From positions 254,121 through 318,120 of the forward strand of contig JAGVWE010000004.1 of the NCBI GenBank assembly GCA_018304425.1: DNA of 64,000 bases, in the 5' to 3' direction. How positions within the stretch are numbered: position 1 is the first letter of the stretch; each line of letters opens with the position of its first letter. The stretch is from Candidatus Iainarchaeum sp. GTDB taxonomy: Archaea > Iainarchaeota > Iainarchaeia > Iainarchaeales > UBA10219. The notes beneath the pieces are model-generated. The model saw nothing but the letters and a program-made list of their open reading frames with translations. It made no database searches and was not told the DNA's origin. The translations under genes were made by a program, and so were the position numbers. Below, piece after piece: positions 12,310-50,066 of this stretch.

Positions 12310-12429
12310 ACCCGACCTCAACCCCTTAAATCACTAAATAATTTTACTCGATTAATATACTTTGTTGGGTGATTGTATATATATACTTATCCTCTATTTA
12401 AATTCTTCTTCTACCGCCTTTAACGCCCT

Positions 12430-12485: not shown

Positions 12486-14213
12486 CTAGGGCTGCGTGAA
12501 ACAACCGCTTTGCGCGCTCCCCCCGGTTGGCAGGGCCGGCATCCCCCCGGTTGGCGAGGGAGGCACGTTCACCGAGTAGCACGTCCAATCCGTGGCCACC
12601 ACGGCCTGGCAATCGGCTTGCTCTTGGGGCGGGGCATCCAGGGCACAGGCATTGTCCTGGCCCATGAACCGGTGCGTGAACCCGCTCAAGCCCCCATCAT
12701 GTAACCGGATTACATACGTGTTTTCATTGTCCTTGTTGACCTTGTACTGGTCATCGTTTTCCACGAACGAAAGGAAAGCGTCAAACTCCTTGGCCTCCGT
12801 GCACTCCACGTGCTCGGCCGCGCCCCCCTCGATGCAGGAACCAATCGGGACATACTGGGTCTTGGGCTCCCAGTTTTCCTCCGCGTCCCGCTCAAAGTAG
12901 GCCCCCACCCCCTCGACCAGGTTCGGGCACATGCCTCCCGACAGCAGAGGCGAATTAGGATAACCCGAGCTGCCCGTGAACGTGCCCGTAGAAGCGGTGC
13001 CGCTTTGGGCGTACTCGATTTTCTTGGAAATCTCGGACGCGGTTCCCACGTCCACCTGCGACAACACGCCTGGACCAATCCGCTTCACGTCAAAGCCCTC
13101 GTCCTCCCCCACCCCGTACTCCGCGGCCAACGCGTTCGCGACAAAGTTCAGGCGCTGCTTGATGATTTCCCGCAACATATCCCCCATGCTCTGCCGGTCC
13201 TTCACCCCATAGTTTCCCGCGAAATCGATTCCCATGCTCGCCAACCCGCTCAAGTCCACGTGCACGGGCGGTATGCCCGGAGGCCGGCTATCCCCGGGAC
13301 AGGGGTCTCCCTGGCTGTGCCCCGCCGGCAGGTAGGGGTTGTTCCTTGCCCCGCAACTGCCGGGGTCGCACACGCCGAGCTTCAACTCCTCCAACTCATT
13401 GTGGATTCTGGCACTCAACAAGCCATAATCCGCCTCATTGCGGATGAAGTCGCTGTCCGTGGGCGCGGCGTCATTGGGCGTGTGCGCCAATGCCTTCGCC
13501 CCGGCCAGGGCCTTGAATATGCGGAGGGGCACGTAAATCCGGAAATTGCTGCGCGGCAGGATGGGCTCCTTGATTACGCGGCCCGTGTCCCGGTTGGTCA
13601 CCCGGATTTGGGGCAGCATCTCATAGTCTTCGTCGCTTATCCGGGACATGTTGAGGTTCACGTAAAACGTGCCCACGCACTCCTTGTACACGCCGTTCGG
13701 GCAGTCGATGACTTCGAAGAAGTCGTCCTGCTTCACGCTCTCCTGGAACAGTTTCTGCAGCACCACCCGCATCTGTTCGACGTTGCTCTCCAGGTCCAGG
13801 CGGAAGCTCTTGAAGTCCTGGCCCTTCCCCGAGCCCAGGATGTTCGTCAAGTGGTTCGCGGTGCGGTTCGCGAACTGTACCCCCGAGTCCGTTCCCCCAA
13901 AGTTAGCGATTGCGAAGTCCCTGACCAGCTCGTTCCAGGTCACGGTGTCCGGCGTAATCAAAATCGAGTTCTGGGGGTTCGTCAGGTACTGCTCGATCTG
14001 GTAGCGGATGCCGAAGTTGAACACCTGCATGGCGTCCGCCCGGGCCAAATCCGCCATGGCCTGCATTTCCTGCTGTTCCTGGATGTCCGAAATCGTGTCC
14101 GTGACGTTCCGCTCCGTCCGGATCATGGACTGCGCCAGCAGCACGGCCAACACGATGAGGATGATGGAGACCAGTGCCGTGAAAAGCGTGAAACCCTTTG
14201 CCGTGCCGCGCAT
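12486..14213 (-). CDS. Large pilin-like protein with class III (prepilin) signal peptide, 575 aa, Cys-rich C-terminal half
   Basis: MRGTAKG|FTLFTALVSIILIVLAVLLAQSM: basic-Gly cleavage site followed by a hydrophobic helix. Confidence 0.75.
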   Translation of the reverse strand: MRGTAKGFTLFTALVSIILIVLAVLLAQSMIRTERNVTDTISDIQEQQEMQAMADLARADAMQVFNFGIRYQIEQYLTNPQNSILITPDTVTWNELVRDFAIANFGGTDSGVQFANRTANHLTNILGSGKGQDFKSFRLDLESNVEQMRVVLQKLFQESVKQDDFFEVIDCPNGVYKECVGTFYVNLNMSRISDEDYEMLPQIRVTNRDTGRVIKEPILPRSNFRIYVPLRIFKALAGAKALAHTPNDAAPTDSDFIRNEADYGLLSARIHNELEELKLGVCDPGSCGARNNPYLPAGHSQGDPCPGDSRPPGIPPVHVDLSGLASMGIDFAGNYGVKDRQSMGDMLREIIKQRLNFVANALAAEYGVGEDEGFDVKRIGPGVLSQVDVGTASEISKKIEYAQSGTASTGTFTGSSGYPNSPLLSGGMCPNLVEGVGAYFERDAEENWEPKTQYVPIGSCIEGGAAEHVECTEAKEFDAFLSFVENDDQYKVNKDNENTYVIRLHDGGLSGFTHRFMGQDNACALDAPPQEQADCQAVVATDWTCYSVNVPPSPTGGMPALPTGGSAQSGCFTQP

Positions 14214-16666: not shown

Positions 16667-19600
16667 TCACGTGGCCCGCGTGGCGTTCCACCGGGTATAC
16701 GTGTCATATAACTCGTCCAGGTCCGGCTCGGCAGGCGCGCGGTACTTCTTGCCATAGGCTTGCAGGACGCACGCAAACTGCTGGGCTTCTTCTCCGGGGC
16801 AAGCAGCCAGCAGGGACTTGACTTCCCCGGCCGCGCAGTCAAAGCTCTCGGCAAGGCCCTTGAACTTGGGGTCGGGCTTGCCGCACCCCGTGATGTACTC
16901 GTAATTGGTTTTCGCGCCCAGGTCCGTTTGCCAGATGCCGAGGACGATCAGCAGGGCCTCTGGCACCCCGGCTTTTGCCGCTATCTCCGTCGAGTGATGC
17001 CCAATGGCTTCGTAATAGGTTTTCACGTACCTTGCTTCCGTTTTTCCTTTTTCGCCCCACAACCCGGCGTTGGGCCGCAAATTGTGCAGGGCCTTGGAAA
17101 CGTCCTTGTCAAACGCCTTGCCCGTGCAGTCCTCGAGCTTCTTGCTCTGGTCCACCGCTGCTAGGTCCGTTACGAGTGAAATCTTTTTCTCGACGAAGTC
17201 GCCCACGCGCTTCATGGTCACCTTGTAGGTCTCGCCCCGCTTGAACTTCTCGTCCGGCATCTCCGCCGTCACAACCTTTCCGTCCGGCGTCTTCACGGTC
17301 GCGGACGCGACAATGCTTTCCGTGGGAGTAATGGGTTCGGCGGCGAACTGCCAGTACGCTTCCCAAGCCAGCAACCCCATGAACTGCGCGAACAACCCGG
17401 AAACCACGCCGCCCAACAACTTCAAGGCGCCCTTGCCGCTCGCCTTCAAGATAGTGTCAGTAAAGAATTTCTTGATGGCCCCCGAGCCCTTGCCCTTGAC
17501 TCCGGTCTTCCGCATTTCCTCGAGGATGTCTTTCATGATTTTTTCCTCTTTTTCGCCGAGGGCAACGGATTCCTTGGCTGAAAGGGTTTGAACACCGGCC
17601 AGCGCACTCCACACGGTTTTCTCGGCTTTCACCACATCAGCCACCCTTGCATTGACGGCGGCGGTGAGCTGGTTTTTGGCAATGCTGCCATTGCTGGTCC
17701 ACACCGCGTCGCGCAAGGCATGCTCTACTTCCTGCCTCACCGCTGCCCTAAAGGGCGTTGCGCCAGGCGTTGGAATAAGGCCCCCACCTGCCTTGGTTTC
17801 AATGGCATCCACAATCTTGGGCGCAAGTTCATCCGACCACTGCATAATCTGGGCATTGCCGCCTGGACTGAAATCGGTTACGTTCCAGCCACCCACGTTC
17901 CTTCCCGGCGTAAAAGTTCGCAGCATGTTCTTGGTGTTGATGTTGTCAGGAAGGATTGCACTCTTGAACGCCGCTTCCACGTTCTCGCTCGTCAGCTTTT
18001 TCAACGCGGCTTCGTCGGCTTCCGTGATGAGTTTCCTCGCCTCTGCCCTGAGCGCCGTGTCGAAGTGACCCGCCCTGAATGCGGGCCGGTTGAGAACCAC
18101 GGGGGCCACTTCCTGCCGCGCCTTCAACAAGGCTTCCTGCAACTCCGTTTCAGTCAACTGCTTGCCTTTCGTGTAATAGTTGTCGAACAAGTATTTCTCG
18201 AGTTCTTCCGCGTACTCCCTGTTGAAAGTTTTCCTGGCGGTTTTGTCCAATGAATCCAGTTGCGCGGTCCACCGGGCGTTGCTTTCAGCGGTGGCAAGCT
18301 CTTCCGATACCTGGCCAAAGATTTTTTTGGCGCTTTTTTCGGTCAACGGCTTCTTCAGCTCCGGGATGACCAATTCCTTGGCCGCGCCCTCGGCGCCAGC
18401 CAGTTTGGCCCCCTCTTCCACGGCTTCCTTGACCGCGGCCTCTCCGCCGCCGGCCGCAGCCGCCTTCTCCAATGCCGTGCCAGTAACCCTCCGGATGGTG
18501 GCCGGGATGGCCGGAATCACTACCTTGCCGGCCGAACTGCCAATGCCCACCGTCACCAGCATGTCCTCGGTCTTGCTCTTGAAGTCCTCCAAGTCCTTTC
18601 CGCTCGCCTTTCCGCTGGCAATCTGTTCGGCCTGCGCCTGGAAGTCCGCCACCTGTTTTTCGGTCACGGTTTCCGGCGAACCCAAACCAACGGTGCGCTT
18701 GGCAGTCGAGTAAACCCCGGAACCCGCCTTGGAAATCGTGGTTCCCACCTTGCCCAAGACGCCGGCGTAATCCAAGCCAGCGACGCCAACGGGAACTATG
18801 CAGTCCCAGAAGAAGCTAAAGGCCCCCACCGGGAAGCCGGCCGCAGCCGCAATGAACTTGGCGCTCCCGCACCCGACCAGGAAGACGCCCAGGCCGCCGA
18901 ACTTCTGCAACGTGAACTTCTTGTCATACGCAGTCTGCCCCTCGGCCGGCGCGTCCGCCAAAATCTTGGTGGCGTCGTCCATCCGCGCCTTGGCGTCCTC
19001 GAGGTTCTTCAAGTTGCTCAACGTGATTTCGTCGGGGCCGCCCTTCCAGCCCAGGGTGGCATACAATTCCTTGGTCTCGCCATCCGCTAGCGGTTCCTTG
19101 GCGATGCGGTCCATGAAGTCATAGGGGTGCAGGGCGCACACCTGCAGGGAAACGGTTCCGTCCTTCGCGGCCTTCTTGGCGTGCACCGCGGACTGCGCGC
19201 CCAACACGAGCTTCTTGCCCTGCACCATCTGCGCGTGCGCGTCGCCCAACGCGCACACCTGGAAGTTCTTGTAATAGCGGCCCTTCAAGTCCTTTTCCTT
19301 CAAGTCCATGGCGGAAAACGCCTGCGCGCCCACTTCTTCCTTCCGGGTTTCCTCAAAGGGCTTGCCGCGGTACACCCGTTGCTCGCGGTTCTCCACCTGG
19401 GCCTGCACGTAGAATTCCTTCAAGCCGTTGAACGCCGTTTCCTGCTTCACCGACACCTTGACCGGCTCGGAGACGTCGCTGAACACGTTGAAGTCACAGC
19501 ACGCGGTGTTCTGGCTGACCGTCAACGGGTTCGGGCAGGCGTTGAGCTCCAGTTGCCCGATTTTCTCGGTGGACTTCAACCAGAACGCGTTCTCGTTGTC

Positions 19601-22600
19601 CGTGATGCAGCCATCGATTTTGCGCTCGCTGAGCTCCCGCATGGCCAGCGCCGCGCTCTGCACGATTTGCTTTTCGACCTTGGCCTTCGCGGCCTCCTCG
19701 CCGCCCTCGAAGTCCTTCACCAACGCGTTAATCGTCATCTTCTGGCCGGCCTCCGTGGAGCGAATCAGGTCGAGTTTGACGAGGTAGCCCTGCGTGTCCC
19801 CGGTGGCCAAGCGCACCCGGTTGAATTCCGGCTCGCCTTTCCGGACCCGCTTGTCCGAGTTGAACAGGGAGGACGCGAACTCCTTGGCCAGGCCCTCCAT
19901 TTTGTCGTCCGCATAAGTCACCAGGCCGGGCCAGGCGTTCCGCGTGTTGTCCGCCGAGTAGCCCGCGTCCAGGGGCAGGAACGCCATCGCGTTCTGGATT
20001 TTGTTCTCGCATTGCTGGGTCAACTGCCGCACGTTTTCGCCTTCCTCCAATTCAGAGCGCAAATCCAGGTAAACATCCATGGCATCTGTAATCATTCTCC
20101 CGCCCTGCACCTTGACCGCGCCCGACAGCCGGGCCTTGTAGAGGCCGCAGCCCTCGAAGGCGTCGGAGAAGAAGAGCTGCTTGCCGTAGCCCGTGGCCAG
20201 GCTCTGCCGGTACTCGTCTTCCGTGGCCGGGAACTTGACGTTGTAGGCGTTCAACTCCGGGGCCTTCTTCGCGAAGCCGTCCTTCAACGCTTCCACGCTG
20301 AGCACGTCGTTCGCGAAATAGACTTCGAACTTGTCGGGCCGCAAGCCCAGGTTCTCGAACAGGCAATAGCCTTCGTTGAGGGCCGCGTTGTCCGCATAGC
20401 AACCCGTGTTCGCGACCTCGTTCTTGTAGTGCGCGGTAATCTGCTTCTGCGCGTCCCGCAGCTTTTCCTGGATGCGCTTGGCCAGGAACTGGCCCAACTG
20501 CTCGGCATCGCAGTAAGCCTTGTCGCAGTCCGCCTGCTTCGCGATTTTGGGGAAGGAAACCTTTTTCCGCTCGTTTTTGTCGCACACCGGGATTTCCTCG
20601 GGCTCGGTGGCGGCCTCGCCTTTGAGCGTGGCCGACTTGCCCAACTCCAGCTGCACGCTGATTGGCTGCGAGGAAACGAATTTGTTGCTGCGCACCAGCA
20701 ACGCGCGCAAGTACACCGGCACCGGGCTCGACGTGAAGTAGGCCTCGTTCTTCTTGAGCGTCAAATTGACCGTGGTCGAGGCCCCGGGGAAGAGCACCGT
20801 GTCCTTGACCGCCAAATCCAGTTCGTTGGCGCCAATCCGCTTGGGTTCCGCGCCCAAAACCCGGACCTCTTCCGCGCAACTGTTCTTGACGGTCAGGGCT
20901 TCCTGCAAGGCCCCTTCCGTGGCCCGCTTGGACTTGAACTCAATAAACGCGGGACTGACCACCAGGCATTGCTTGGGCGAGATGTGCACCGTGACAATTA
21001 TGGGGCCGAAGTCATGGGTTTTCCCGTTGATGATGCCCCGCATCCCGATCTCCTGGACGTCCAGGGGAGTGGTCTTCTCGGTCCGCTGCGCCCTCGCCAC
21101 CACGTAATAGGGGGGCATGAGGCTCTGGCCCCGCCGCAGCACCTGCACCGGGAACTTGGGCTCAATCTCGATCTTGGCGTTCCCGGACTGGAACCTTCCC
21201 CCCACCGAGAAGCTGAGGTTCTGGATGTCCGCGTACCCCACGTTGGTCGCATAAATGGGCACCGTGACCTTGGCCTCTCCCACGCCAGTATCCGACAGGT
21301 AAACGTCGATGTTCCTGGACACCTGCAAGGCAGAGTCCTTGTTCCACAACACGACTTCCAAGGGCAGGGACTTCGACAACAAGTCGCTCCTGAACCACAC
21401 GTCGTAGAGGAACCGCTGCTTTTCCGCGTAATTCCGTTCCAGTTCGTTGACCACGCTGACGTTGATGGTCCGGGTGTCGGTCTGGCTTCCCGCCGGCCCC
21501 AGCAAGAGGTTTTCAACGGCCACGCGGATGCTCTGGTCAGGCACCCCCACCGGCACCACGGCTGACTGCAACTCGACTTCCGTGGCGCACTTGTTTTTCG
21601 CCGTAATCTGCACGGCCTGCGTGCTCGCCGGCTCGGTCAACAGGTAGGTCACGAGCCGCGCCGAACTGAATTCCACGCAGTTGGGGTCCAGCGGCCGGTT
21701 GTAGTCCAGCACCACCCGCGTCTGCGCTTCGACGCGGAACTTGCCAAAAATCCGTCCCCTGAAAATCACGTCGGCTTCGCCGTGCGCGCGCTCGGCCTTG
21801 CCGCTGTACTCGCCTGCCACCGTCACCTTGCCACTGGCATTGGGTTCAATCGCGTTCGGCGGCGTAACCCGCAGGTCCAGGTCCTCCGGGAAGTCCCCTA
21901 TCTTCACGACTTCAACGGTGAGGTCCTGCACGCGGTCCGAAGAGGTATTCCGCAAGTCGAACCGCTCGTCCGCGTTCTTCTGCCCCTTGGGGATGTTGAC
22001 TTCCACGGCTTGCGGCGCCGTTAACACCCCGTCCCGGCCTATTTCGACCACGCCTTCCAGGGGCTTATAGTCGGCCGCGTTGGCCGTGAACCGCAGGGTT
22101 CCCGCGGGAAAAGCGTTCTTGACTAGGTACAAGCCGTTCAAGCCCTTGTTCACGGTGCCCGTGCCCTGGATGACCCGCAGGGGCGCGTTGCCTTCGCCGT
22201 AGAACGTCAGGACCGCCCGCTCAACAAAGGAACCGTCCCCGGCCTTCAACAAGACCGTGAAGTCCTGTCCGACCAGGACGCGGTCGGGCGAGACCGTGGC
22301 CGTCATGCCCTGGTCCTGGCTGACCTCGAAGTTGAAGTTCTGCGTCACCGCGCTCACGGCCGAAATCAATTGCACGGTCAAGGCCGCCGAACCCTTTTCC
22401 ACGGCCTTGAAGTAGAGCCGCACCTGGACCGGGCCGCCCGGCAAGACCTTCAAGTCCTTGGCCGTGAGGTCCGTGTCCGTCGAATCCTTATCCGGGAAGT
22501 CCGCGAACTGTTCCACGCCGTAACCCGTGAAGAAAATCTTGGGCGCGTTCCTCGAAGTCGCGCCCTTGACCGTGACGCTGACTTCCCGTGCGGGCGCGAC

Positions 22601-25078
22601 CTCGACTTCCAAGGCATACTTGTTCCCCACCACCGCGTGGAAGTTGCCGGCCTCGAACACGGTCCCGTCTTCGGCGAGGAACCGGTAGGTCGCGCAGAAC
22701 TCGTCCTTGCAGGTGGGCCGGGCGTTGAACACCGGCACGTCGACGCGGTTGGTTTCCGCGTACAAGCCCGTGCGCTGGGCGGAGAACTCCAGGCCCTCCA
22801 ACAACGGATCCCTGGGCAGCCTATAATAGGCCGAGCCAATCCGGGTCCAGGCCCGGTAATACAGGGGATACGAGCTGCTGGCAGCGGTTTCCTTGGCTTT
22901 CAACCGCACCTTGTACACGCGTTCCGCCGCGCCTCCCTCGTGATACAATTCCAGCCACCGGTTGTATTCCCCGGGCAAGCCCCGGTTCCGCAAGTCAATG
23001 CCTTCGAAGCCGGGACTCGGCTGCGGCGTGTAACTGCGTCCATACGCGAACCTGGGAGCCAGGCCCGTGAAGCCAATGATGCCCGCATCGCTGGAGTCCG
23101 CGAACCTGATTTCGTCGGGCCCGAACCGGAAGTGCATGCCGCCCACGTATTTCCCGTCCGGCCACGCCGTCTTGAACACCGCGTAATAGTCCTGGCCCTT
23201 GACGATTCCCTCCACCTTGTTCCCGTTGGGGTCCTCGAAGCCCATGAACTGGACTTCGGGGGCCAGGCCCGTGACCTTCTGCTCGCCAATCGTGAGGCTC
23301 AAGGCATTCTTGCCTTCCACGAAGACCTCTTCCTCGAACAACGCGCCATCCCGGCCCGTGTAACTCACTTTCACGGTCTTCAAGCCGCCGGGGTTGAAGT
23401 ACACCGTGCCGCCCGTTACCGGGCCCGAGTAGAGGACGTTGCCGCTCGTGGACGACACCACGATGTTGCCCGCCGCCATCGGCTGGCCCTGCGCGTCCAC
23501 CAAGGACAAGGCGAACACGCCTCGGTCGGTTTTCATGAAGATTTCAAGCCGGTTCTCGGCCCTCGCATCCGTTGCCAGGGAGGCCTCGCCTTTCTCGTTT
23601 TCCTTGACGGCCGTGACCAACAGCGTTTTGCCGACGGGAACCACCGCCTTGGCGTAGCCCGTGATGTCGGTCCTCGTCTGGGAAACGCCTAACGGCAACT
23701 CGCCCCCCGCCACGGACTCGTAGAAGGTCAGCACCGCGTCGTTGGCGGCATCGCCCTTGGAGTCGGAGACGAACACGCTCAGGGTAGTCGAGTTGTCAGG
23801 CGCGGCCCGCGCCAACGGAAGGGTGTACTCGGTTTGCTGTTGGGCGTTGACCTCGATTCGGGCCGGCAGATACCGTTCCGCGTTGGCCGTGACGTAGTAC
23901 TTTTGCTGCGCGTCCAGGTTCCGGAAGTAAACGTCTCCACCGAACTGGGTCAAGCCCGAGTCCATGAACTCGGCTTGCGCGTCATACAATTCCACGGCCG
24001 CGTTGGACAACACGAGGCTGCTGTCCTGCGCCGTGACCGTGACGTGAATGGATGCGCCGCCCTTGCGGAGCTCGACTTGCACGACCTCGCTGTCGTCCCG
24101 CAGGGTCTTGCTGATGAGTTCAACCGAGGAGTCGAAGGCAATGTAGCCCTCCGCGGATACCACGTACCGGATGCTCGTGCCCTTGGCTATCTTCGTGAAG
24201 TATTCCCCGTCCTCGTCCACGTCGTCCAGGATGAGCTCGCCGCTCTTGGCGTCATACACCTTGACCGAGACCTCGGGCACCAGGGTCTTCGAGTCCGCGT
24301 CGAACACCCTGAAAATCGCGTTGGACAAGCCGATGGTGGCGCTGGCCTTGGGCGGAACCTCCAGTTCCGAGGTCGAGCCCTCGGAGAACCGCAGGACGAA
24401 CGCCTTTTCCTCGTAGTTGTCCGCGTAGACCTTCAATTCCACGTCCTCGCCTTCGGGAACGCCGAGGCAGGACACCAGGCCGTTGCCTTCGACTTCGCAG
24501 GAGATTTCCTCGCCCGTGGAAAGCCGTGCCACGACCTTCGCGTTCTTTATCTGGTCCTTGGTCTGCGAGTCAACCAGGGAGAGCCTTCCCAGGATGGTGC
24601 TGACTTCCTTCTGCAACTGCACGGCCACGCTGGCAGACTTCTCGTTGACCTTGACTTCGCCGGAACCCGACAGGTAACCTTCCTTGGCGCCCACGACTAT
24701 CAGGGTCGCGCCAATCGGCACGCCCTTAACGGCAACCGTTTCCCCGTCGCGTAGCACGTCTTTTTCGAGGGCAAACCGTTTGCCGTCCTCGCCCTTGACC
24801 TGGACTTGCACGCCGCTGACCGGCTGGCTGAACTGGTCCACGAAATGAGTGGTCAATTGCACGTCATAGCTGGTGCCCACGAAGACCAGGCCCAGCACCA
24901 GGCCCAACACCACCAAGAACAAGGCGGTGAACACGGGGAAGGCGGGAATGCCGCGTTGTTCCAACGCGTCAATCAAGCCGTAGACCGGGAGCCCCTTGCC
25001 GTCCAGGAAGTCGGCGAAGCCAAAGAACCGCTCCTCCAAGGCCGAGTAAAAGCCGCCTAACATCTCCGACAAACCCAT
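16667..25078 (-). CDS. Giant membrane-anchored surface protein, paralogue C (2803 aa), with internal hydrophobic helices and a C-terminal lysozyme/SLT-like domain
   Basis: Same N-terminus as A/B (FYSALEERFFGFADFLDGKGLPVYGLIDALEQRGIPAFP plus TM), the same repeats and GMHFRFG/YYRAW/CKDEFC motifs. Confidence 0.9.
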   Translation of the reverse strand: MGLSEMLGGFYSALEERFFGFADFLDGKGLPVYGLIDALEQRGIPAFPVFTALFLVVLGLVLGLVFVGTSYDVQLTTHFVDQFSQPVSGVQVQVKGEDGKRFALEKDVLRDGETVAVKGVPIGATLIVVGAKEGYLSGSGEVKVNEKSASVAVQLQKEVSTILGRLSLVDSQTKDQIKNAKVVARLSTGEEISCEVEGNGLVSCLGVPEGEDVELKVYADNYEEKAFVLRFSEGSTSELEVPPKASATIGLSNAIFRVFDADSKTLVPEVSVKVYDAKSGELILDDVDEDGEYFTKIAKGTSIRYVVSAEGYIAFDSSVELISKTLRDDSEVVQVELRKGGASIHVTVTAQDSSLVLSNAAVELYDAQAEFMDSGLTQFGGDVYFRNLDAQQKYYVTANAERYLPARIEVNAQQQTEYTLPLARAAPDNSTTLSVFVSDSKGDAANDAVLTFYESVAGGELPLGVSQTRTDITGYAKAVVPVGKTLLVTAVKENEKGEASLATDARAENRLEIFMKTDRGVFALSLVDAQGQPMAAGNIVVSSTSGNVLYSGPVTGGTVYFNPGGLKTVKVSYTGRDGALFEEEVFVEGKNALSLTIGEQKVTGLAPEVQFMGFEDPNGNKVEGIVKGQDYYAVFKTAWPDGKYVGGMHFRFGPDEIRFADSSDAGIIGFTGLAPRFAYGRSYTPQPSPGFEGIDLRNRGLPGEYNRWLELYHEGGAAERVYKVRLKAKETAASSSYPLYYRAWTRIGSAYYRLPRDPLLEGLEFSAQRTGLYAETNRVDVPVFNARPTCKDEFCATYRFLAEDGTVFEAGNFHAVVGNKYALEVEVAPAREVSVTVKGATSRNAPKIFFTGYGVEQFADFPDKDSTDTDLTAKDLKVLPGGPVQVRLYFKAVEKGSAALTVQLISAVSAVTQNFNFEVSQDQGMTATVSPDRVLVGQDFTVLLKAGDGSFVERAVLTFYGEGNAPLRVIQGTGTVNKGLNGLYLVKNAFPAGTLRFTANAADYKPLEGVVEIGRDGVLTAPQAVEVNIPKGQKNADERFDLRNTSSDRVQDLTVEVVKIGDFPEDLDLRVTPPNAIEPNASGKVTVAGEYSGKAERAHGEADVIFRGRIFGKFRVEAQTRVVLDYNRPLDPNCVEFSSARLVTYLLTEPASTQAVQITAKNKCATEVELQSAVVPVGVPDQSIRVAVENLLLGPAGSQTDTRTINVSVVNELERNYAEKQRFLYDVWFRSDLLSKSLPLEVVLWNKDSALQVSRNIDVYLSDTGVGEAKVTVPIYATNVGYADIQNLSFSVGGRFQSGNAKIEIEPKFPVQVLRRGQSLMPPYYVVARAQRTEKTTPLDVQEIGMRGIINGKTHDFGPIIVTVHISPKQCLVVSPAFIEFKSKRATEGALQEALTVKNSCAEEVRVLGAEPKRIGANELDLAVKDTVLFPGASTTVNLTLKKNEAYFTSSPVPVYLRALLVRSNKFVSSQPISVQLELGKSATLKGEAATEPEEIPVCDKNERKKVSFPKIAKQADCDKAYCDAEQLGQFLAKRIQEKLRDAQKQITAHYKNEVANTGCYADNAALNEGYCLFENLGLRPDKFEVYFANDVLSVEALKDGFAKKAPELNAYNVKFPATEDEYRQSLATGYGKQLFFSDAFEGCGLYKARLSGAVKVQGGRMITDAMDVYLDLRSELEEGENVRQLTQQCENKIQNAMAFLPLDAGYSADNTRNAWPGLVTYADDKMEGLAKEFASSLFNSDKRVRKGEPEFNRVRLATGDTQGYLVKLDLIRSTEAGQKMTINALVKDFEGGEEAAKAKVEKQIVQSAALAMRELSERKIDGCITDNENAFWLKSTEKIGQLELNACPNPLTVSQNTACCDFNVFSDVSEPVKVSVKQETAFNGLKEFYVQAQVENREQRVYRGKPFEETRKEEVGAQAFSAMDLKEKDLKGRYYKNFQVCALGDAHAQMVQGKKLVLGAQSAVHAKKAAKDGTVSLQVCALHPYDFMDRIAKEPLADGETKELYATLGWKGGPDEITLSNLKNLEDAKARMDDATKILADAPAEGQTAYDKKFTLQKFGGLGVFLVGCGSAKFIAAAAGFPVGAFSFFWDCIVPVGVAGLDYAGVLGKVGTTISKAGSGVYSTAKRTVGLGSPETVTEKQVADFQAQAEQIASGKASGKDLEDFKSKTEDMLVTVGIGSSAGKVVIPAIPATIRRVTGTALEKAAAAGGGEAAVKEAVEEGAKLAGAEGAAKELVIPELKKPLTEKSAKKIFGQVSEELATAESNARWTAQLDSLDKTARKTFNREYAEELEKYLFDNYYTKGKQLTETELQEALLKARQEVAPVVLNRPAFRAGHFDTALRAEARKLITEADEAALKKLTSENVEAAFKSAILPDNINTKNMLRTFTPGRNVGGWNVTDFSPGGNAQIMQWSDELAPKIVDAIETKAGGGLIPTPGATPFRAAVRQEVEHALRDAVWTSNGSIAKNQLTAAVNARVADVVKAEKTVWSALAGVQTLSAKESVALGEKEEKIMKDILEEMRKTGVKGKGSGAIKKFFTDTILKASGKGALKLLGGVVSGLFAQFMGLLAWEAYWQFAAEPITPTESIVASATVKTPDGKVVTAEMPDEKFKRGETYKVTMKRVGDFVEKKISLVTDLAAVDQSKKLEDCTGKAFDKDVSKALHNLRPNAGLWGEKGKTEARYVKTYYEAIGHHSTEIAAKAGVPEALLIVLGIWQTDLGAKTNYEYITGCGKPDPKFKGLAESFDCAAGEVKSLLAACPGEEAQQFACVLQAYGKKYRAPAEPDLDELYDTYTRWNATRAT

Positions 25079-25191
25079 TACCTATTTCACCCGCTATAAT
25101 TAATGGCTGACGAAGTAGTATATTAAAGTATTTAATAAACCCTTTGCCTGCCTGCTGCCTTGCTTTTGAGCCCCCAACGAATGCCCCGCTT

Positions 25192-26370
25192 TTAGTCCAG
25201 TTGCGCCGGGATTTCGTCCGCGGTTATCACGCTTATCTCGCATCCATTGAGGACCGTTTTCACTTTTTCACCTTCGTATGCCACGACCAGCGCTTTTTTG
25301 GGCTTGTATTTTTCGATGAACGAGCGGAGGCTTCTTTCGATTTTTCCGGCCGCAAACGTTTTGACTTCAATGGGGATGAGGCGTCCCTCTTTCTGCACGA
25401 CGAAGTCGACTTCGGCCTTGCTCTTGCTTTTCCAGTAGTTTGGGGTGAAGCCGGCCTTCCGGATTTCGTTGAGCACGTAGTTTTCGAACATCTTTCCCTC
25501 GTTTTCGAGTTCGTTCGGGAAGGCATCCATGATCGCGTTTCTCATGCCAGTGTCGTTGAAGTAGAGCTTGGGTTGTTTGGCCAGCTCGAGGCCCTTGTTC
25601 GTGAAATAGGGCCTTACCCGCGTGATGAGGTAGCTTTTTTCGAGTGCATCCATGTATTTTTGGAGCGTGGGCGTGCTGATGCCGAGTTTTTTGGAGATGG
25701 CGCCATAGTTTATCTCCGTGCCGATGTTCGCGGCCAGGTATTTGGCGAGCCGTTCGAGTTTTTCCTGGTCGTTGATGCCGAATGCCATGAAAGTGTCCTT
25801 TAGAAGAGCCGTGGTGAAGAGGTTCTTCAGGAGGGTCTTCTTGGCTTCCGGCGATTCCGCCAGCACCACCGCCGGGTAACCGCCGTACACCGCGTGCTCC
25901 CACACGTGCCGCCGAAGGATGTCGGCGACGAATGCTTTCTGGCCTTTCGCGGAGAGGAACTCGCCGAGGCTGAAGTTGGGAAGCGTGAGGATTCCGACCC
26001 GTCCCGTGAGGTGGGAAAGCACGCTTGCCTCCAAAAGCGCTTGCGAGGAGGCGCTCACCCAGAGCTTGTAACCCGCATCCGCCAGGTACTTCAGCTTGAT
26101 TCCTGCTTCCTTCCCATATTGCACTTCGTCAATGATGGTTGGGCGGTCCTTGGCCAAGTACTGTTGCTCGAACCTTTTCACGTCGCCGTCGAACAGGGAT
26201 TTGGCGCTTGGGTCGTCGAGGCTGACGTAAGACACGTCCCTCCCCTTGGCCATTTGCTCCCGGAGGAAAGTGGTTTTTCCGGCCTGCCGGGGGCCGATGA
26301 CGGCCACTATCTTGTACAGCGCGTCCAACTGCCTGAAGCCAGGGCCTGCTTGCCTTTCAACCCACATCAA
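25192..26370 (-). CDS. AAA+ ATPase with DUF4143 C-terminal domain (AAA_14 family)
   Basis: Walker A GPRQAGKT, Walker B IIDEVQY, GGYP, KLYFNDTG, and nuclease-like EVDFV...IPIEVK. Confidence 0.9.
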   Translation of the reverse strand: MMWVERQAGPGFRQLDALYKIVAVIGPRQAGKTTFLREQMAKGRDVSYVSLDDPSAKSLFDGDVKRFEQQYLAKDRPTIIDEVQYGKEAGIKLKYLADAGYKLWVSASSQALLEASVLSHLTGRVGILTLPNFSLGEFLSAKGQKAFVADILRRHVWEHAVYGGYPAVVLAESPEAKKTLLKNLFTTALLKDTFMAFGINDQEKLERLAKYLAANIGTEINYGAISKKLGISTPTLQKYMDALEKSYLITRVRPYFTNKGLELAKQPKLYFNDTGMRNAIMDAFPNELENEGKMFENYVLNEIRKAGFTPNYWKSKSKAEVDFVVQKEGRLIPIEVKTFAAGKIERSLRSFIEKYKPKKALVVAYEGEKVKTVLNGCEISVITADEIPAQLD

Positions 26371-26532
26371 CTACTACTAAACCCAAAGCATTATTTAAAT
26401 TTAACCCTGCCGTTTTTAAAAAAGCCTGTTTTTCTCGCCTTTGGCTGGGGGTTGAATTCCACGGGCATTTCCTTGACGCTTTGAGGTATCCGGCCGCATG
26501 GACTTAGAATGGGCCGTACCCCCTTCCAGCAA

Positions 26533-29500
26533 TCAGTTGGTGTACACGCCGGCGTTGTTCTCGAGGTGGCCTCCCGCGCACATGACGCCGTTGCCGAGTT
26601 TCTTGTACCAGGCCTCGTGCTGGTTCTGGTAGCCGCACTTCCAGGCAAACCAGTAGTCCTGGTCCTCCGGCAGCTTGACCAGCGAGAGGTAAGGATAGCC
26701 CTTGGGGTCGGGAGCTGCCGGGACATGGTAGACCTTGGTGAGCACGACCTTGGTGGCGGGCACACTCCAGTCACCCGGCATGTCCGTGAGGTTCTGGTTA
26801 AACCAGGCCGAGGGGTCCTTCAGCGTGATGCTCATCTCCATGGCATTGGTTCCATTGTAAATTCCATAGGTTGGGCTAAAGACAATGCCGTGGTTTTTCA
26901 GGACGTCGTCAATGACGGTGCCGACATCGGGGTCCAACTTCTTGAATTCTGCCAGCAATGTATAGAACGACTGGTTGTTGCCTTGTTCACCGCCATCCAC
27001 TTTGTCGTATTCCCTATCAAAGCCCTCGTCGAGTAGCCTTAACAGCTTGTACTCGTCTTTGAGTTTCACCATTGCATCGCTGATGCGTTTCGTGTCGCTG
27101 TCCCTGCCCATGACATAGGCTTCCACGGCGTTCTTGTACTCGCCGTAGCTCGGCAAGCCGAAGTTGCTGCCAATCCATTCGTCGTCCGAGCCGGGGTTGA
27201 CCTGCTTGTCGAGTTCGAGGTGGTAGGTCATGGACTTTTCGGGGTCATCGCCGTCCACTTCCAGGTCGTAAATGGCGAGGGTCGTGCAGGTGCCGTTGCC
27301 CATGCACGTGATGGGGTCGTTGCGTTCCTTGTCTATGAAGTAGTCCGCGTTCTCCTTGTAGAAGTCCGCGCAGTACGCGTAGGCCGGGTCCTTGTCCTTG
27401 CCCTCGTCAAAGGCTTCCGAGCAGGCAATCATTTTCCGGGCCTCGTCCAACCCATAGGAGTCGCCGCCGTTGCCGGCCTCGAGTTTCACGGACTTCTTGT
27501 TCAACGCGTAGTAGAACGGCTTATAGCAGTCCTCTGCATAGGCTTTGCCGTTGCATAAATCGTACAGGCCTTCGAACCGTGTGGGGCTCGCATTCTTTTG
27601 GCCTTGTGCGGGCGGCCTCAGTTTGAGGCTGTGGTCAATGGTTTTGCCGTCCAAGGCAGTGGCCTGCCGCTTCAAGGACAACGCGTCCAAGTAACCCGGG
27701 TCAGCCGCGTACGGTCGGCCGCTGAACGTATAGTACAGGGTCCGGCCCAGTTTCTCGGCTTCCTTGGCCCCGGCCTGGAACAACACGGTGTTGCCCGAGA
27801 ACACGGTGGCATCCTCGTCGTTCAAGGGCATGGAGGGTTCTTTTTCCAGGGGGCGGAGGCCCGGGTGGATGATTAAGTATGCGTTGCCTGCATTGACTCC
27901 ATAGCTGGCCGCTACCTCGACCTGGTTGCCCCGGCCTCCCTTGAGGCCCGCAATCAAGTCATTGGCTTCGCTGCTGAACTGCCACCAGGCAATGCCTTGC
28001 TGGATGACTTCGCCTGCTGCCAGCGCCCATCCCACGAAGGGAACGGCTTTCACCAGCACCGAACCCGTCTTCGTGGTAGCGAATGCGCCAAACTTGCCTG
28101 CCACCCTCACCGCGGCAACGGCTCCGGCCTTGGCGCCCTTGGCGGCCCGGAATGCCTTCCAAGCCGTGTTTACCGTCTTCCAGTCCTGCGCCGTCTTAAA
28201 CCATTTCGCGGCCGGCGCGAACTTGGCAGCTACTGCCTTGCCAGCCGCCTGAATCGGTTCGGCTACGCCAATCTTGTCCGCGCTCCAGGCAATGCCCTTG
28301 CCAGTGGCTCTCAGCATGTGGCCAATGCCTACCGCCACCCAGGTCGCGGGGTGCGCGTGGGCAATGAGTTGCGTGGCCCGTAACGCGCCCGCCCAGCCCT
28401 TGAAGTTGCTGAGCAATCGGGCCATGCTACCCCGCAACCGCGCCCAGGACCAGAACCGCACGGCGTCTCCCGTGGTCTTGGCCGCTGCCGCGGCGCCTGG
28501 AGCTGCACCCGTGCCTGGTGCCACGGTCGTGCCGCCGGTCGCCGGTGCTCCCCCTCCCACAGCAGCCCCGCCTTCCTTGGCCCCTCCGGGTTCCGCAAGC
28601 CTCGCGAGGGGCGGACCAATTGGTTCTGCAACGACTGGTTTGCTAGTGCCCGTCCACCAGTCAATGATTCCCTGGTTTTCTACCGCTCGCGCGCGTGCCG
28701 CTTTCAAGTCGTCTTCAATTCTTGCCACGTTGCGTCGCGCGTTAGCCAGTTGCTCGGCCGAAGCCTTGGGGTCGTTGAGCCTTGCTTGGGCCGCCTTGAG
28801 GTCTCCGTCGAGTTTTGCGATTTCCTTTTGGTCTTCTGCCAGCCACTTCCTTGCCTCCGTGACCCCGGATGGTTCCGCGCCGGCGCCCGGCATGGTTGCC
28901 GCCGGAGTTGCAGCCGCTTTCGCAGTCAATGCAGCAATTTCCTTTTCAAGGTCATCGATTTGCCTTGCCAGTGCCTGTTGTGCCCTTCTTGCTTCTGGGA
29001 TAAGCTTTTGTTCGAGTTCCGGCACTTTTGCGCCACCCGAAGCCCGCAAGCTGTTCAATTCATCGGTCAGGTCAGCTATCTTCTTGGCCTGCGCTTCCGC
29101 TTGTTTCTTCAGGGCAGCCAACTGGGTCTTCGCGGCCTCGAGTCTTGTTGCTACCTCGACCGCCTCAGCTGAGCCTGCAGCCGCCTTCGGCGGCTCGGTA
29201 ATCTTTTCCCTGTCAAGGGGCCGAATTTGGCCGTCCTGGGTTGATGTTAGGGGCTTGTCCACGGCGGCGGCCTGCAACCGGGCCAGCGTGGCCTCGGCAT
29301 CAGCCACTTCCCTCATGGATTTAATGATTTGCGTGCCTCGTTCCGCGCCGTAAACTTGTTTGATGTCGGCCTCCATTCTCTCAATGCCTTTCTGTAGGGC
29401 CGCCTTTCGCCCGTCGACGACGGGTCGCTCTGGCTGGGAGATGATGGGTTGTTGCGTGAGTTCCCGGGTCTCCAAGGCCTTGAGTCTACGCAGCGTCTGC

Positions 29501-32500
29501 TGGTAAAAATTAATCAATGGGGCATTCAATCGCGCGGCGTCCTCGGCGCCCTGGGCCACGGCCTGCCTCAGCTTGGCCACGTAATCTGCTTCTGCTACCA
29601 CGTCCTTGGCGGCGCCGGTAACGGCTTTCTCGGCTTCTGCGAGTCTGGTGGCCGCACCCCGTCCAATGGCGTCTTTCCTCATCGCTTGGATGCCCATTTC
29701 TTTGGCCAGAATTTCGTCGTCCAATTCAGCCAGCCTCTTCTGAAATTGTGCAATTCCTTTGTCATATTCTTCCAGGGTGCCGGTGCGGGGCCAGTCTATC
29801 TCGCCCCTAAACGCATCGAATTCCTTCTGCAAAGCATTCCGTGCCTCAACCAATTTATTGAGCTCGGCTTCCCGTTGGCTGATTCTAGCCAACAAGTCAT
29901 CCACGCCAGTAACCGCTTTCGCTTCCGCCGCGGCCTTGGCTTCAAGGTCGGCCAAGCGCTTGGCGTAGGCCGCGACCTCCTTGCCTTCCGCGTTCAGGAT
30001 GGCCTCGAATTCGTCGAGTTTGCCCATCGCGGCAAACCGGCCGCGGGCCCGTGCAATGCGGGCCTCGACCTTCTGGATTTGCTCGTCAAGCATGGCCAGG
30101 ATGCGTTGGCTCTCGGCTTTCTCGGCAGCAGACCATTCGACGCTGGCAATGCGTTGCTGGTGCACGGCCTTCCGCTCGTAGAGGTAACGCAACTGCAAGG
30201 CGTCGCCCCGCAACGCAGCGGATTCACGCGCCAAGGTAGTGGCAAGCGTTTCCGTTGCCGCTTTGACCGCTCCAGGTGCCACGCCTTTTATCTTGCCCAG
30301 CAAATCGTCCAAGAACGCTTTCACGCGCGAGTGGAGGCCCTTGGGGGCCAGCACTTCGTCGACGACTTCTTTGTTACCGGTTTTCAGCAACGCAGCTTCG
30401 GCGCTATCGCCTGCATCCAAGTACTTCCTTATAGTGCCAGTTGAGTCCTTGGCGGCCTCTCTTTCCGCGGCTTCCTGCATGGCCTTGCTGATATCAGCAG
30501 GCTTGACCGGCCTTTTCGCGATTTCCCCGAGTTGTGCCAACGCGTTTTGCTGGCCGAGTTCGTCTGCCAGCATGCCCACGCGCCGCTGGCCTTGTGCGAT
30601 GGAAGCCTCGAGGTCCTTGATTTCGGCTTCAAGACTCGTAATCTTGCCCCGGTCTCCGGCGGACAACGGTCCACGAGGTCCTTTTCCCTCGTAAAGCGCC
30701 AACTCGCTTCTAGCCGAGTCCAACCGGGTCTCCAACTGGTTGAGGTTCTTTATCTCGCCTTCCAAGTCATCCAGGAGTTTTTGGGGTGTTTTTGCCGGGG
30801 GCGCGGGCACCTTCACTGTATCGGGTTCCACGGGTGCCGGAATAGGGGTGGGGGTTGGCACTGGTGTGGGTGTGGGGGTCGGAGTAGGAACAGGAGTTGG
30901 GGTGGGCACGGGTGTGGGAGTGGGCACAGGTGTTGGGACTGGAGTAGGAACGGGAGTGGGTACGGGTGTTGGAACCGGAGTAGGAACCGGGGTGGGAACC
31001 GGCGTGGGCAACGGTGGTATGGGTTCCACGGCCCTCCATTTCAGGGGCGCGAGCGTGGTCCAGGGAATCATGATGATGGGGATGAGGGCCTTCTTGTACT
31101 TGCTGAGCTCGGCTTGCTGGAAGTAGCTTGACACGCTCGTGGCGTTTTCGCCGATGTAGTAGGTGACGCCGTCTTGCACAACGGTTTGCCCGACGACTAC
31201 TTGGCCGCTGGCCGGCGGCCAGTTCGCGACCGTGCTTTCCACGGTGAAGCAGTACACGGCCTCATGGTTGCCGATGGCAGCATAGCAGTTGCCGCCCGCG
31301 TCCAGCAATTGCTGGATGGGTTCGGGCAATTTCATGCCCTTGATTTTCGCGAGTTCCTCGTCGATGGGCTGGAAATTGTCCACGTACATTTCGTTGAGCA
31401 AGGGGTTGTTGCCCGCGACGTCTTTTAATTCGCTGAAGCTGATGCGCAGCTTGGAGGCCAAGGCCGCGGTTTCCCCGAACTTTCCGGCGGTCAAGGCGGT
31501 CTCGAGTTTGGTCGCGTCCGCCATCATGGAAGCCGACTTGGCGTCCAAGGCATCGCGTTTGGACATGGCTTCCTTGTATTCCTTGGCGTTGGCCGCCGTG
31601 TCTCCGACGAAGAGTTTTTCGAGGAACCGGTTATACCAGTCAACCGAGTTGAACAACATGGTCATGAAAGCCGTTGGATGCGTGGCGGCGTCGGTGGCCG
31701 GGATGGGGTTGCCGCTGTCGTCCTTGGCCTCGACTTTCGCGAAGGGCAGGGCCTGCACCGGGCTATAGCCATAGAGGCAGCCGAGCTTGGTGCCAATCAT
31801 GCGCGCGAACATGTTTTGGACGCGCCAGTTCTTGATGGGTATGAAGTAGTCCATGCTTCCATAGAATTTCCGCTTGCCTTGCGCGGCGTTGTCAACGACT
31901 TGGTTGAGGACTTCCTCGAACTGGATGTTTTCCACCGAGCCCACGCAGACTTCCTTGGACAGGATGCTGGAATACATGGTGTCAAGGTTGACCGCATCCG
32001 GCCACAGGTCTTCGCGGATGATTCTCGCCACCGGTCCCAGGTACGCCGAGGCGTCCGGGGTAAAGCGTTGTGCGAACGTGTAAATCGTGGCCTGCTGGGC
32101 GTCTACCTTCACGCCTTCCGTGGAAGCATAGAGCCAGGCCTCGTTCATGGTCTTGCCCAAGTCCTTTTGCTTGGTTTCGTCGGCTGTGGGGGCCTCGACT
32201 TTCACGGTGTAGGGCGCCTGCTGGTCTGCCGCCACGCCTGGCGCGACTTCTTGCACGAACCGCACGTAACTGGTCTTGCCCTGGGGCACCACCGTGTCTC
32301 CGAGGAAGGGCTTCAAGTCACAGGCCTCGGGCTTGCCATAGTCGGCCGCGTTCACGAGGACGCCGAAGCTGAAGGGCTTGCCTGGGAACGAGTCCACGTA
32401 GTTCTGGGAGTCCTCGAACACGATGCCGCGGTATTTTTCGAAGGTTTGCCGGAGTTCGGCCAGGGAACCCGTCAAGGCCGGGCACGCGCAGTAACTGTCC

Positions 32501-34026: not shown

Positions 34027-34601
34027 GCGGTCAACGCCCCTGACACGCGGGTGGCCAGTTTTTCTTCGGTGGCCCGCATTTCTTCGACTGGCAGCCACAC
34101 CAGTTCAAAGCCCTTCAACTCGGTGAAGAGCGCGGTGCGCTGTTCTTCGGAAAGCGATTCGTAAAAGGGAGTGGGCAAGGCGAGGGTAACCGTTGAGAGG
34201 TTGCGGTGGGTGTTGGGCAAGCGCATGGACAGGGAGACCTGTCGGCCTTCCTTGGGTTTCACGACCACGAGGCTGTATTCTTCGAGTTTCTCGACTTCGC
34301 CGGTGGCAGAGACCTCTGCCGTGGCAAGGGAGTCGGCCAAGGCGTTCGGGACCACCGTCAACAGCACCAGGTCCGCGTTTTCCGGGGCCAAAATCCGTTC
34401 CTCGTGTCCTTTCGCGGAAATCGAGACGTCCTTGTTGACTTGCAGGCCCGCATAGTCGATGGCATAGGAAGCGTTCAAGTTGAGGGGTTGCACGTACTGG
34501 CTCTGCGACCACAGGAAGGCGAGCACGCCTCCCCCGATGACGACCGCAACCACCAGCAATGCCAGGTCCCGCTTGGATATTTCCCCCTCTAAATTAGGCA
34601 T
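34023..34601 (-). CDS. Membrane-anchored hypothetical protein, 192 aa; first gene of the giant-gene block
   Basis: N-terminal TM LALLVVAVVIGGGVLAFLW; overlaps the start of the next gene; TATA-like sequence upstream. Confidence 0.8.
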   Translation of the reverse strand: MPNLEGEISKRDLALLVVAVVIGGGVLAFLWSQSQYVQPLNLNASYAIDYAGLQVNKDVSISAKGHEERILAPENADLVLLTVVPNALADSLATAEVSATGEVEKLEEYSLVVVKPKEGRQVSLSMRLPNTHRNLSTVTLALPTPFYESLSEEQRTALFTELKGFELVWLPVEEMRATEEKLATRVSGALTA

Positions 34602-36504: not shown

Positions 36505-36562
36505 ACCCCTTTCCTGCACCAAACAATTAAATACTTCGTCGCCGTTAGTGTTTCGGGTAAGC

Positions 36563-40752: not shown

Positions 40753-40757
40753 TGTAG

Positions 40758-45451: not shown

Positions 45452-45568
45452 GTCGTTTCCCCGTCCAAACACTTATGCGTGAACCCATTTAAATGCCTTT
45501 CTGAACCGCATTTCCGGTGCGGGTTTGCCAGCAAACCTTTAAATAATTCTTCGGCCGTCTAACTGTAC

Positions 45569-49986: not shown

Positions 49987-50066
49987 GCGTATTTTGGCTA
50001 GGCGTAGGATTAAATAACCGGAATCAACGCAGTAATAGTAAGGGGTTTGCAAATAATATAAGGGGT

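Follow-up and report, generated by a model that had tools for sequence, protein, structure and literature searches.

A putative tip module with a hypervariable, cysteine-free segment and a lysozyme-like end in giant surface proteins of Iainarchaeota

Large proteins of up to ~3000 amino acids (aa) have been reported from DPANN archaea, organisms with small genomes, and for those that carry a lytic transglycosylase domain of the murein type a role in binding or degrading bacterial cell walls has been proposed (PMC8204110, PMC9723730, PMC10936187). They include a published family of giant lytic transglycosylases, fam00969, recognised by sequence and described for Pacearchaeota and Woesearchaeota (PMC8204110, PMC9723730, PMC10936187). 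The Iainarchaeota are described as a lineage whose host is unknown and which is possibly free-living (PMC10936187). How DPANN archaea attach to and feed on their partners is largely unknown. Among phages, the tape-measure protein pb2 of T5 is described as having a coiled coil, a muralytic end and 46 hydrophobic residues for which insertion into the host membrane has been proposed. Here we analyse a stretch of 64,000 nucleotides of Candidatus Iainarchaeum sp. (contig JAGVWE010000004.1, positions 254,121 to 318,120; hereafter the window), from a genome of 1.48 Mb in 7 contigs in which an archaeal small-subunit ribosomal RNA was detected. One of several giant genes on its minus strand encodes protein A, which ends in what we predict to be a tip module composed of a hydrophobic helical hairpin, a fast-evolving segment free of cysteine, a glycine-zipper-like closing helix, a small beta unit and a domain with the fold of lysozymes and lytic transglycosylases (Table 1). 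With moderate confidence, we read this module as an extracellular device that engages the bacterial wall and perhaps a membrane.

Judging from its alignments, A belongs to a family of giant surface proteins that extends across its archaeal phylum. Residues 2001-2803 of A match 35 of the 215 genomes of the phylum, and the 20 orthologue loci that were fetched encode frames of 2500-3450 aa (2402-3444 aa when trimmed to the first Met) that align to A over its full length and are 27-39% identical to it over residues 1-2100 (n = 20). Together with A these make up the set of 21 proteins to which the family counts given below refer. Pfam recognises a CarboxypepD_reg domain at residues 343-421 of A. 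A word-indexed homologue search with the A tail returned A itself and nothing else. The members of the A cluster are near-identical and hold no strain-level signal, and in one fragment of 111 aa, 8 of the 10 differences fall in the inner part.

A preliminary description of this DNA had noted that A and a neighbouring giant, B, enclose Cys-free segments between weakly hydrophobic helices, had inferred that these helices may insert into a host membrane, and had named strong, constitutive transmembrane (TM) helices in the cell's own membrane, together with enclosed segments as conserved as the rest of the protein, as the findings that would speak against this. The internal helices of A are not of that kind. 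Hydrophobicity was computed by summing over 19 residues the Hessa biological scale, which derives from experiments on the eukaryotic endoplasmic reticulum. By this measure the N-terminal anchors have a median best 19-mer of -3.7 kcal/mol and 20 of 21 lie at or below 0, the single exception being an artefact of trimming one open reading frame (ORF) to its first Met. The hairpin, in contrast, has a median of +4.0 with none of the 21 at or below 0; for the closing helix the median is +7.1, and 16 of the 21 exceed +5. For windows of 60 aa drawn from the ectodomain as background the median is 13.9 and the first percentile 6.9, and the hairpin is oilier than more than 99% of them. On these predictions the hairpin is remarkably hydrophobic for a protein exposed outside the cell but does not come close to a TM helix that inserts by itself, and in most members the closing helix is neither long nor apolar enough for one, although the helices might still insert cooperatively. 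The closing helix of A itself reaches +2.6 kcal/mol because of a 7-residue insertion that lengthens it.

The hairpin and closing helix have conserved features of their own. An AlphaFold2 (AF2) model of the tip module, with a mean pLDDT (predicted local distance difference test) of 56 overall, places the two Gly/Ala-rich hairpin helices at model positions 10-40 and 47-66 (pLDDT ~70-79), and the hydrophobic patch itself covers residues 2059-2102 (window ~18773-18904). C2070 and C2093 are invariant in all 21 proteins, and a [FL]x[DN]CxxP motif is conserved. The two Cys are positions 31 and 54 of the model, set back by ~10 and ~8 residues from the loop at positions 41-46, and going by the predicted secondary-structure string they could face each other across the hairpin. 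The first hairpin Cys has a lipobox-like setting ([LFM]-x-[GA]-C after basic residues), which was rejected as a signal because its n-region would be extracellular. The closing helix has the family consensus KGxxxGxxxNAxGxxxY and is ~15-17 residues long in most members, with a conserved Asn. The beta unit is followed by the invariant C2651 (window 17126-17128, minus strand); in the numbering of alignment A1, Y579 is nearly invariant and C612 invariant. At five loci (L024, L033, L031, L023 and L025) an acidic repeat, DNDGDGxxDEExCDGxDNDGDxxVDEDC, stands between closing helix and beta unit; it has the look of a calcium-binding insert.

The inner segment, which AF2 renders as helices mostly at pLDDT 30-75, is the most variable part of the protein. 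Its length ranges from 91 to 451 aa, with 18 of the 21 proteins within 346-451 aa. Identity to A, taken per block of 50 residues, is 0.21-0.49 up to residue 2100, 0.05-0.11 with ~40% gaps across residues 2101-2500, and 0.15-0.25 afterwards. In the three closest pairs the inner segments are 29-33% identical, against 58-74% for the ectodomain, 65-69% for the closing region and 56-70% for the C-terminal region. The inner segment is thus evolving at least twice as fast as its flanks, and the alignment of orthologues that had been suggested as a check does show an enclosed segment that is hypervariable between conserved elements (29-33% versus 56-74% in the flanks of these pairs). Its proposed identity as an effector payload fared less well: neither a Pfam or PHROG domain nor an enzymatic or toxin domain was recognised in any of the 21 inner segments, a fold search with the segment gave no match above helical-bundle noise, and nothing else marks it as cargo. 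When the A1 profile was compared with the PDB, apolipoprotein A-I was the commonest match (11 of 34, including the top 8, best E 0.025) and aligned over the inner segment, which we read as amphipathic-helix composition and not as homology.

From C2093 to C2651, A has 557 consecutive residues without Cys. The run by itself is unexceptional, as a longer one of 585 aa lies between C204 and C790; it gains significance only across the family, because the inner segments hold no Cys in 7831 aa, in 21 of 21 proteins. Cys density in the 21 proteins is 0.97 per 100 aa in the ectodomain and 2.26 per 100 aa in the C-terminal region. The ectodomains contain 410 Cys in 42,272 aa, of which 355 occupy conserved columns and 18 are sporadic, a rate of 0.043 per 100 aa. 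ORFs of the genome without TM-like segments contain 1.33% Cys, a baseline taken from crude ORF calls that possibly include spurious frames. For the 7831 inner residues, ~100 Cys would be expected at this cytoplasmic-type rate and ~3 at the sporadic ectodomain rate. The absence of Cys from the inner segment therefore matches the rarity of sporadic Cys in the protein's own ectodomain, and fits an exposed, oxidising location better than the cytoplasm. It had been argued that such segments fold in a reducing compartment because they lack Cys, and the figures of 1.33% in other ORFs and 0.043 per 100 aa in the ectodomain do not support that argument. The rule of thumb would need correcting for these proteins, in that missing Cys appears to mark extracellular exposure and not a reducing compartment.

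The distribution of the conserved Cys also suggests how the segment may be held. There are 20 near-invariant Cys columns, made up of 17 in the ectodomain, the 2 of the hairpin, and C2651. The Cys count is odd in the C-terminal region of 21 of 21 proteins and in the ectodomain of 18 of 21, with the count of one protein depending on the boundary chosen. Given the split of 17, 2 and 1, one or more of the conserved Cys has to remain unpaired or find its partner in another region. A bond from C2651 to an upstream Cys would make the inner segment a loop closed by a disulfide.

The last ~135 residues of A are predicted to have a lysozyme/lytic-transglycosylase fold with a degenerate catalytic motif. 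In a VIA-align comparison all of the top 22 rows are peptidoglycan-hydrolase entries, 21 of them lysozyme-like, SLT or GH73 and one an amidase entry. MltF scores highest (Z 10.8; root-mean-square deviation 3.5, 123 aligned residues), followed by MltC (10.2), goose-type lysozymes (9.0-9.5), Slt (9.0), the GH73 enzyme Auto (8.6) and Tge2 (7.6). Foldseek returned hydrolases of the GH73 and Tge2 types at probability >=0.9, with poor E-values for the whole model. At the sequence level, Pfam found nothing in the A tail, SLT included, PF01464 had no match in the whole genome at E <=0.01, and a weak profile match to MltC (E 0.22-0.43) is the sole hint. Two of the 20 orthologues (L034 and L035) carry clear wall-hydrolase domains after the closing helix: one has an Amidase_2 domain (6e-29) with a weak Glucosaminidase match, the other NlpC/P60 (1.6e-6), Amidase_3 (4.7e-20) and Glucosaminidase (3.4e-10) domains. 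PHROG endolysin families match the same two proteins.

Protein B, to which the preliminary description had given the same layout, is a different case. The elements and Cys-free runs lie where they had been placed in both proteins (557 aa in A; 1231 aa in B, between C950 and C2182, far beyond any other run in B), and the flanks do bear Cys, with 28 residues in A and 26 in B. In B, a strong N-terminal helix and a Cys-containing ectodomain precede the stretch ALIPIIMIPW. This stretch had been taken for the opening hydrophobic helix, a role that does not suit it: it is 10-16 residues long, contains three Pro, has no 19-mer at or below 6 kcal/mol and runs directly into a Pro/Thr-rich linker. Such linkers are of a kind found in secreted proteins. 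The interior had been called largely coiled coil, which holds for residues 1096-1850 of B (heptad pattern in 19% of windows against 1% in shuffles); the inner segment of A shows no such pattern. PHROG matches to the B interior are weak and of coiled-coil type (SbcC-like, 8e-5; minor tail protein, 1.4e-3). The closing helix of B (27976-28053) has a best 19-mer of +6.3 and ends in WQF, and the C-terminal region beyond it has no Pfam family and no meaningful PDB sequence match.

B has few relatives. Its tail matches one other genome of the 215, and among 1.84 billion representatives it gave four matches: two to B itself, one to a 2232-aa homologue of the G153 type, whose C-terminal sequence equals that of the G153 ORF, and one to a weakly matching repeat protein. 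The sole B homologue (2253 aa), in which Pfam found no match, can be aligned along the ectodomain and again from the basic segment up to the C-terminus, but its interior does not align. BLASTP detected no significant similarity between A and B. The two proteins are not detectably homologous, and their layouts appear to be convergent. Both closing helices do end in WQF, as had been pointed out, but this ending occurs in none of the 20 A orthologues and not in the B homologue. W[QE]F occurs 14 times in the crude proteome and follows a hydrophobic 20-mer in A and B only. Gene conversion was considered and left no sign, the DNA at the two sites being identical at 29 of 66 positions. We treat the common WQF ending as coincidence or species-specific convergence.

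Under the reading that we favour, A would be held in its own cell's membrane by the single strong N-terminal helix and would present, after an ectodomain of ~2000 residues, a tip consisting of hairpin, variable helical segment, basic stretch with glycine-zipper-like helix, beta unit and lysozyme-like end. That end would bind, and in some relatives cut, the peptidoglycan of a bacterial partner; the A domain itself may bind rather than cut. The variable inner segment would be an exposed spacer or a surface under pressure to change, its lack of Cys reflecting that unpaired Cys is not tolerated outside the cell, and the small-residue hydrophobic helices would pack as a three-helix core or engage a membrane on contact. 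An extracellular module is favoured over a cytoplasmic loop by the weak helices, by the pattern of Cys occurrence, by the rapid change of the inner segment, by the acidic Cys motifs and hydrolase domains that follow the closing helix, and by the Pro/Thr linker of B. We infer the extracellular location, the bacterial partner and any engagement of a membrane from these features. Insertion of the hydrophobic helices of A into a host membrane is possible. A pore-former fold comparison, made on the low-confidence model, gave low scores only, with pyocin S5 at Z 5.1 and SmhB at a Foldseek E of 1.7. A bolder version, which we think unlikely, makes the tip a cell-borne penetration device, an archaeal counterpart of the phage tape-measure tip. 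After wall docking or cutting, the disulfide-held hairpin and the glycine-zipper helix would give up their packed arrangement and insert into the host membrane, where they would open or stabilise a conduit; the hypervariable loop would track host diversity; and the giant might be processed, at the G-[ILV]-G-x-[YFW] motif heading the hairpin, by the mini-archaeosortase encoded nearby. Were this so, that motif would be an internal sorting signal, a kind not previously known for that enzyme family.

Several observations weigh against an extracellular, wall-engaging module. At the catalytic Glu-Ser site A reads WQTD and most orthologues WKS..., with QES..NP in one of the 16 that align there (L029, QESKCNP), and the weak MltC alignment puts Q/T of A and K of the family at E217, in a register uncertain by 1-2 residues. 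The AF2 model is poor overall, and the cytoplasmic Cys baseline depends on the crude ORF calls mentioned above. The bracketing helices of the B homologue are more TM-like, at +2.7 and +3.6. N-glycosylation sequons number 0.43 per 100 aa in the inner segment against 0.82 in the ectodomain. Finally, the residues flanking the closing element are basic on its N side (K+R 3.5 versus D+E 0.5) and acidic on its C side (0.6 versus 2.0) in 19 of 21 proteins, the same pattern as expected of an in-to-out TM helix with a cytoplasmic inner segment. This charge asymmetry, which fits the positive-inside rule, and the halved sequon density keep alive the alternative that the giant is polytopic. One hairpin arm and the closing helix would then cross the cell's own membrane as an additional self-anchor, with the Cys-bearing parts outside and the inner segment a cytoplasmic loop that perhaps couples to internal partners. 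VIA did pair the hairpin together with the closing helix with TM helices from membrane proteins, though Z was low (~4.5), and the values for the closing helix of A and for both helices of the B homologue are those of borderline insertable helices. We regard such a topology as conceivable though doubtful. It must accommodate a closing helix that in most members is short, carries a conserved Asn and exceeds +5, and a hairpin of two helices, on which an even or odd number of membrane passages would have to be imposed. Flanking charges give a mixed picture, since the hairpin is more basic on its supposed outer side in 14 of the 21 proteins. A cytoplasmic loop would hardly be expected to lack Cys over 7831 aa when other ORFs of the genome contain ~1.3%, nor to change at over twice the rate of exposed domains, and the interior of B opens with a stretch that is not TM-like and a Pro/Thr linker.

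A membrane role could also be dispensed with altogether. Helices rich in Gly and Ala and with a GxxxG-like spacing are a classic means of helix packing, which would suit a hairpin and closing helix buried in a soluble extracellular helical domain, perhaps a disulfide-locked oligomerisation unit, with the inner segment as a tolerated excursion or spacer. The invariant Cys at matching depth on the two hairpin arms, the need of C2651 for a cross-region partner and the retention of inner length despite sequence divergence would all fit such a core. Its hydrophobicity is unusual for a soluble domain, however; the basic amphipathic lead-in with its aromatic-ended helix looks membrane-interfacial, and the module adjoins a wall-enzyme-like end. 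On balance we consider a purely structural core rather improbable. The reading originally put forward, in which the enclosed segment is an effector delivered through or with pore-forming helices into the host cytoplasm to fold there, can point to the weak helices and to a hypervariable interior between conserved motifs, formally like the layout of polymorphic toxins. It seems very improbable to us: no inner segment holds an enzymatic or toxin domain, the gene downstream is a conserved pilin-like gene and not an immunity-like one, the segment is internal and by Cys parity probably a disulfide-closed loop, the conserved wall-enzyme-like domain follows it instead of preceding it, and the Cys pattern does not require a reducing compartment.

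The giants follow one another in tandem on the minus strand in the order D, C, A, B, with a fifth just beyond the window. An N-terminal motif of ~48 residues is common to A, C, D and this fifth protein, followed by a strong TM helix and then arrays of carboxypeptidase-regulatory-like domains. The motif, MGL..FY..LED.YY..LDK....IPVY..IDP..., ends in [IL]P[AS]FP right before the TM anchor in the four tandem giants, and looks like a dedicated recognition or sorting element. Across the fetched loci a gene order is conserved in which a small archaeosortase-family gene is followed by an A-type giant, a pilin-like gene with a class III signal and a C-type giant; a long type IV pilus-type ATPase gene and a platform gene adjoin this operon. 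In 12 of the 20 loci the A-type giant has the archaeosortase-family gene immediately upstream, and in 19 of the 20 a homologue of the pilin-like gene g575 lies beside or near the A orthologue. The product of g575 may be a large modular pilin. Bacterial partners are suggested by a conserved operon that combines a small archaeosortase, a pilin-like protein and a type IV pilus-type ATPase and platform with two giants, one of which ends in a wall-enzyme fold and in some relatives bears clear amidase, NlpC/P60 and GH73 domains at that end.

The archaeosortase-family gene of the window, g196, encodes LCTG, NIIR and THD motifs, which we take to hold the catalytic Cys, Arg and His residues of archaeosortases. 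Homologues of g196 occur in 173 of the 215 genomes, far above the number matching the A tail, so that co-occurrence does not discriminate. A second member of the archaeosortase family is encoded elsewhere in the same genome. Between g196 and A stand B, an ATPase gene of the AAA_14/DUF4143 type and two small genes, and from synteny B seems to have been inserted into the conserved operon; the ATPase gene has a homologue at one other fetched locus, L026. Of the two pilus-type gene sets in the window, the one at 38443-43064 encodes an unusually long ATPase (769 aa, with a FlaI-like core) and a platform protein of 768 aa, and is syntenic with the giant operon in other genomes.

Table 1. Positions of the giant genes, their predicted parts and neighbouring features in the window
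Feature	Position	Strand	Basis or remark
Giant D, 2659 aa in the genome	cut by window edge	-	open frame
Giant C, 2731 aa, A paralogue; conserved operon partner without tip module	4126..12321	-	Pfam, hydrophobicity, synteny
Giant A, 2803 aa: N-anchor, ~2000-aa ectodomain, C-terminal tip module	16667..25078	-	open frame
Giant B, 2521 aa, near-orphan between archaeosortase-like gene and A	26533..34098	-	open frame
Fifth giant, 2375 aa	G000:C3:243119-250243 (outside window)		
Shared N-terminal motif copies	24935-25078, 12178-12321, ~3996-4115	-	giants A, C, D
A: N-terminal TM anchor, residues 49-67	24878..24934	-	best 19-mer -4.0 kcal/mol
A: opening patch/helical hairpin, residues ~2049-2105	18764..18934	-	AF2 helices, invariant Cys
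A: inner segment, residues ~2106-2550, Cys-free, predicted helical, fast-evolving	17429..18763	-	alignments, AF2
A: closing element, basic amphipathic lead-in and Gly/Ala-rich helix, ends WQF in A, residues ~2551-2579	17342..17428	-	alignment A5; helix ending in WQF at residues 2549-2578 (17345-17434)
A: small beta unit, residues ~2592-2635	17174..17305	-	AF2 strands, model positions 553-596
A: predicted lysozyme-like/lytic-transglycosylase-like domain, residues ~2668-2803	16670..17077	-	AF2 pLDDT 80-96
B: opening stretch ALIPIIMIPW, residues 1003-1012	31063..31092	-	three Pro
B: Pro/Thr-rich linker, residues 1013-1095, 83 aa	30814..31062	-	P 42%, T 24%, V 16%
B: coiled-coil-like region, residues 1096-1850	28549..30813	-	heptad pattern 19% of windows vs 1% in shuffles
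B: Ala/Gly/Lys/Trp-rich basic segment, residues 1851-2015, and closing helix, residues 2016-2041	27976..28548	-	net charge +18, 8 Trp
B: Cys-containing C-terminal region, residues 2042-2521, 480 aa	26536..27975	-	
g575, pilin-like, 575 aa, Cys-containing, class III signal, downstream neighbour of A	12486..14213	-	N-terminus MRGTAKGFTLFTALV...; weak ComGF pilin match
AAA_14 + DUF4143 ATPase gene between A and B, part of apparent insertion	25192-26370	-	
g196, 196 aa, exosortase/archaeosortase family	35980..36570	-	TIGR04178 39.7 bits vs cut-off 23
Type IV pilus/archaellum-type gene set	38443-43064	+	
Type IV pilus/archaellum-type gene set	58505-61926	-	

Three further features of the window were recorded. 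A protein of 1615 aa (49851-54698, plus strand) ends, within its last ~35 residues, in ...LPSLPEEP, a hydrophobic helix and RGTRVNRA; this resembles the three-part tag of PEP-CTERM proteins, and would make the protein a plausible archaeosortase substrate. Two paralogues on the minus strand (34956-35630 and 44624-45472) combine an N-terminal acylphosphatase domain with a C-terminal coiled-coil-like part. A DDE transposase gene (PF01609; 56919-58151, plus strand) lies between the two pilus-type gene sets.

The combination of hairpin, variable loop and glycine-zipper helix in one module, and its operon with a small archaeosortase, were not found in the literature searched, supplements not covered. 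The closest described proteins are those of fam00969, which A resembles in its very large size (2803 aa), its strong N-terminal TM helix and its lysozyme/SLT-like end. A is set apart, on the description of that family, by a degenerate motif and an end in which no SLT or GH23 domain is detectable by sequence. Moreover, the hairpin, the variable Cys-free segment and the glycine-zipper helix go unmentioned in the accessible parts of the fam00969 descriptions, and it is this arrangement that could explain engagement of a membrane. With MltF, MltC, Slt, goose-type lysozyme and GH73 enzymes, A shares the predicted fold of residues ~2668-2803 (Z 10.8 to 6.4 over 106-136 aligned residues), and its 'GVPEALL...' helix aligns with the MltC helix that leads to the catalytic Glu. 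It differs from lytic transglycosylases and GH23 enzymes in that the catalytic Glu-Ser is not kept in A and most orthologues and that no family was assigned at the sequence level.

For the hydrophobic part of the module, the nearest parallels are found among toxins and phages. The pore domain of colicins and the T domain of diphtheria toxin have a ~40-residue, Ala/Gly-rich hairpin of marginal hydrophobicity beside amphipathic helices. The hairpin of A is likewise ~40 residues long, Ala/Gly-rich, marginally hydrophobic and placed beside amphipathic helices; unlike theirs, it has an invariant Cys pair and unconserved neighbouring helices, and its fold scores stay within helical-bundle noise. As for tape-measure proteins, the PHROG tail and tape-measure families have no match in residues 2040-2803 of A. 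A is anchored to a cell where T5 pb2 is part of a virion, its helical part stands between hairpin and enzyme-like end, and the enzyme of pb2 is a metallopeptidase. What A and pb2 have in common, as a functional analogy only, is a hydrophobic stretch of similar length (a hairpin of ~44 residues in A), a helical part and an end that resembles a wall-degrading enzyme, lysozyme-like in the case of A.

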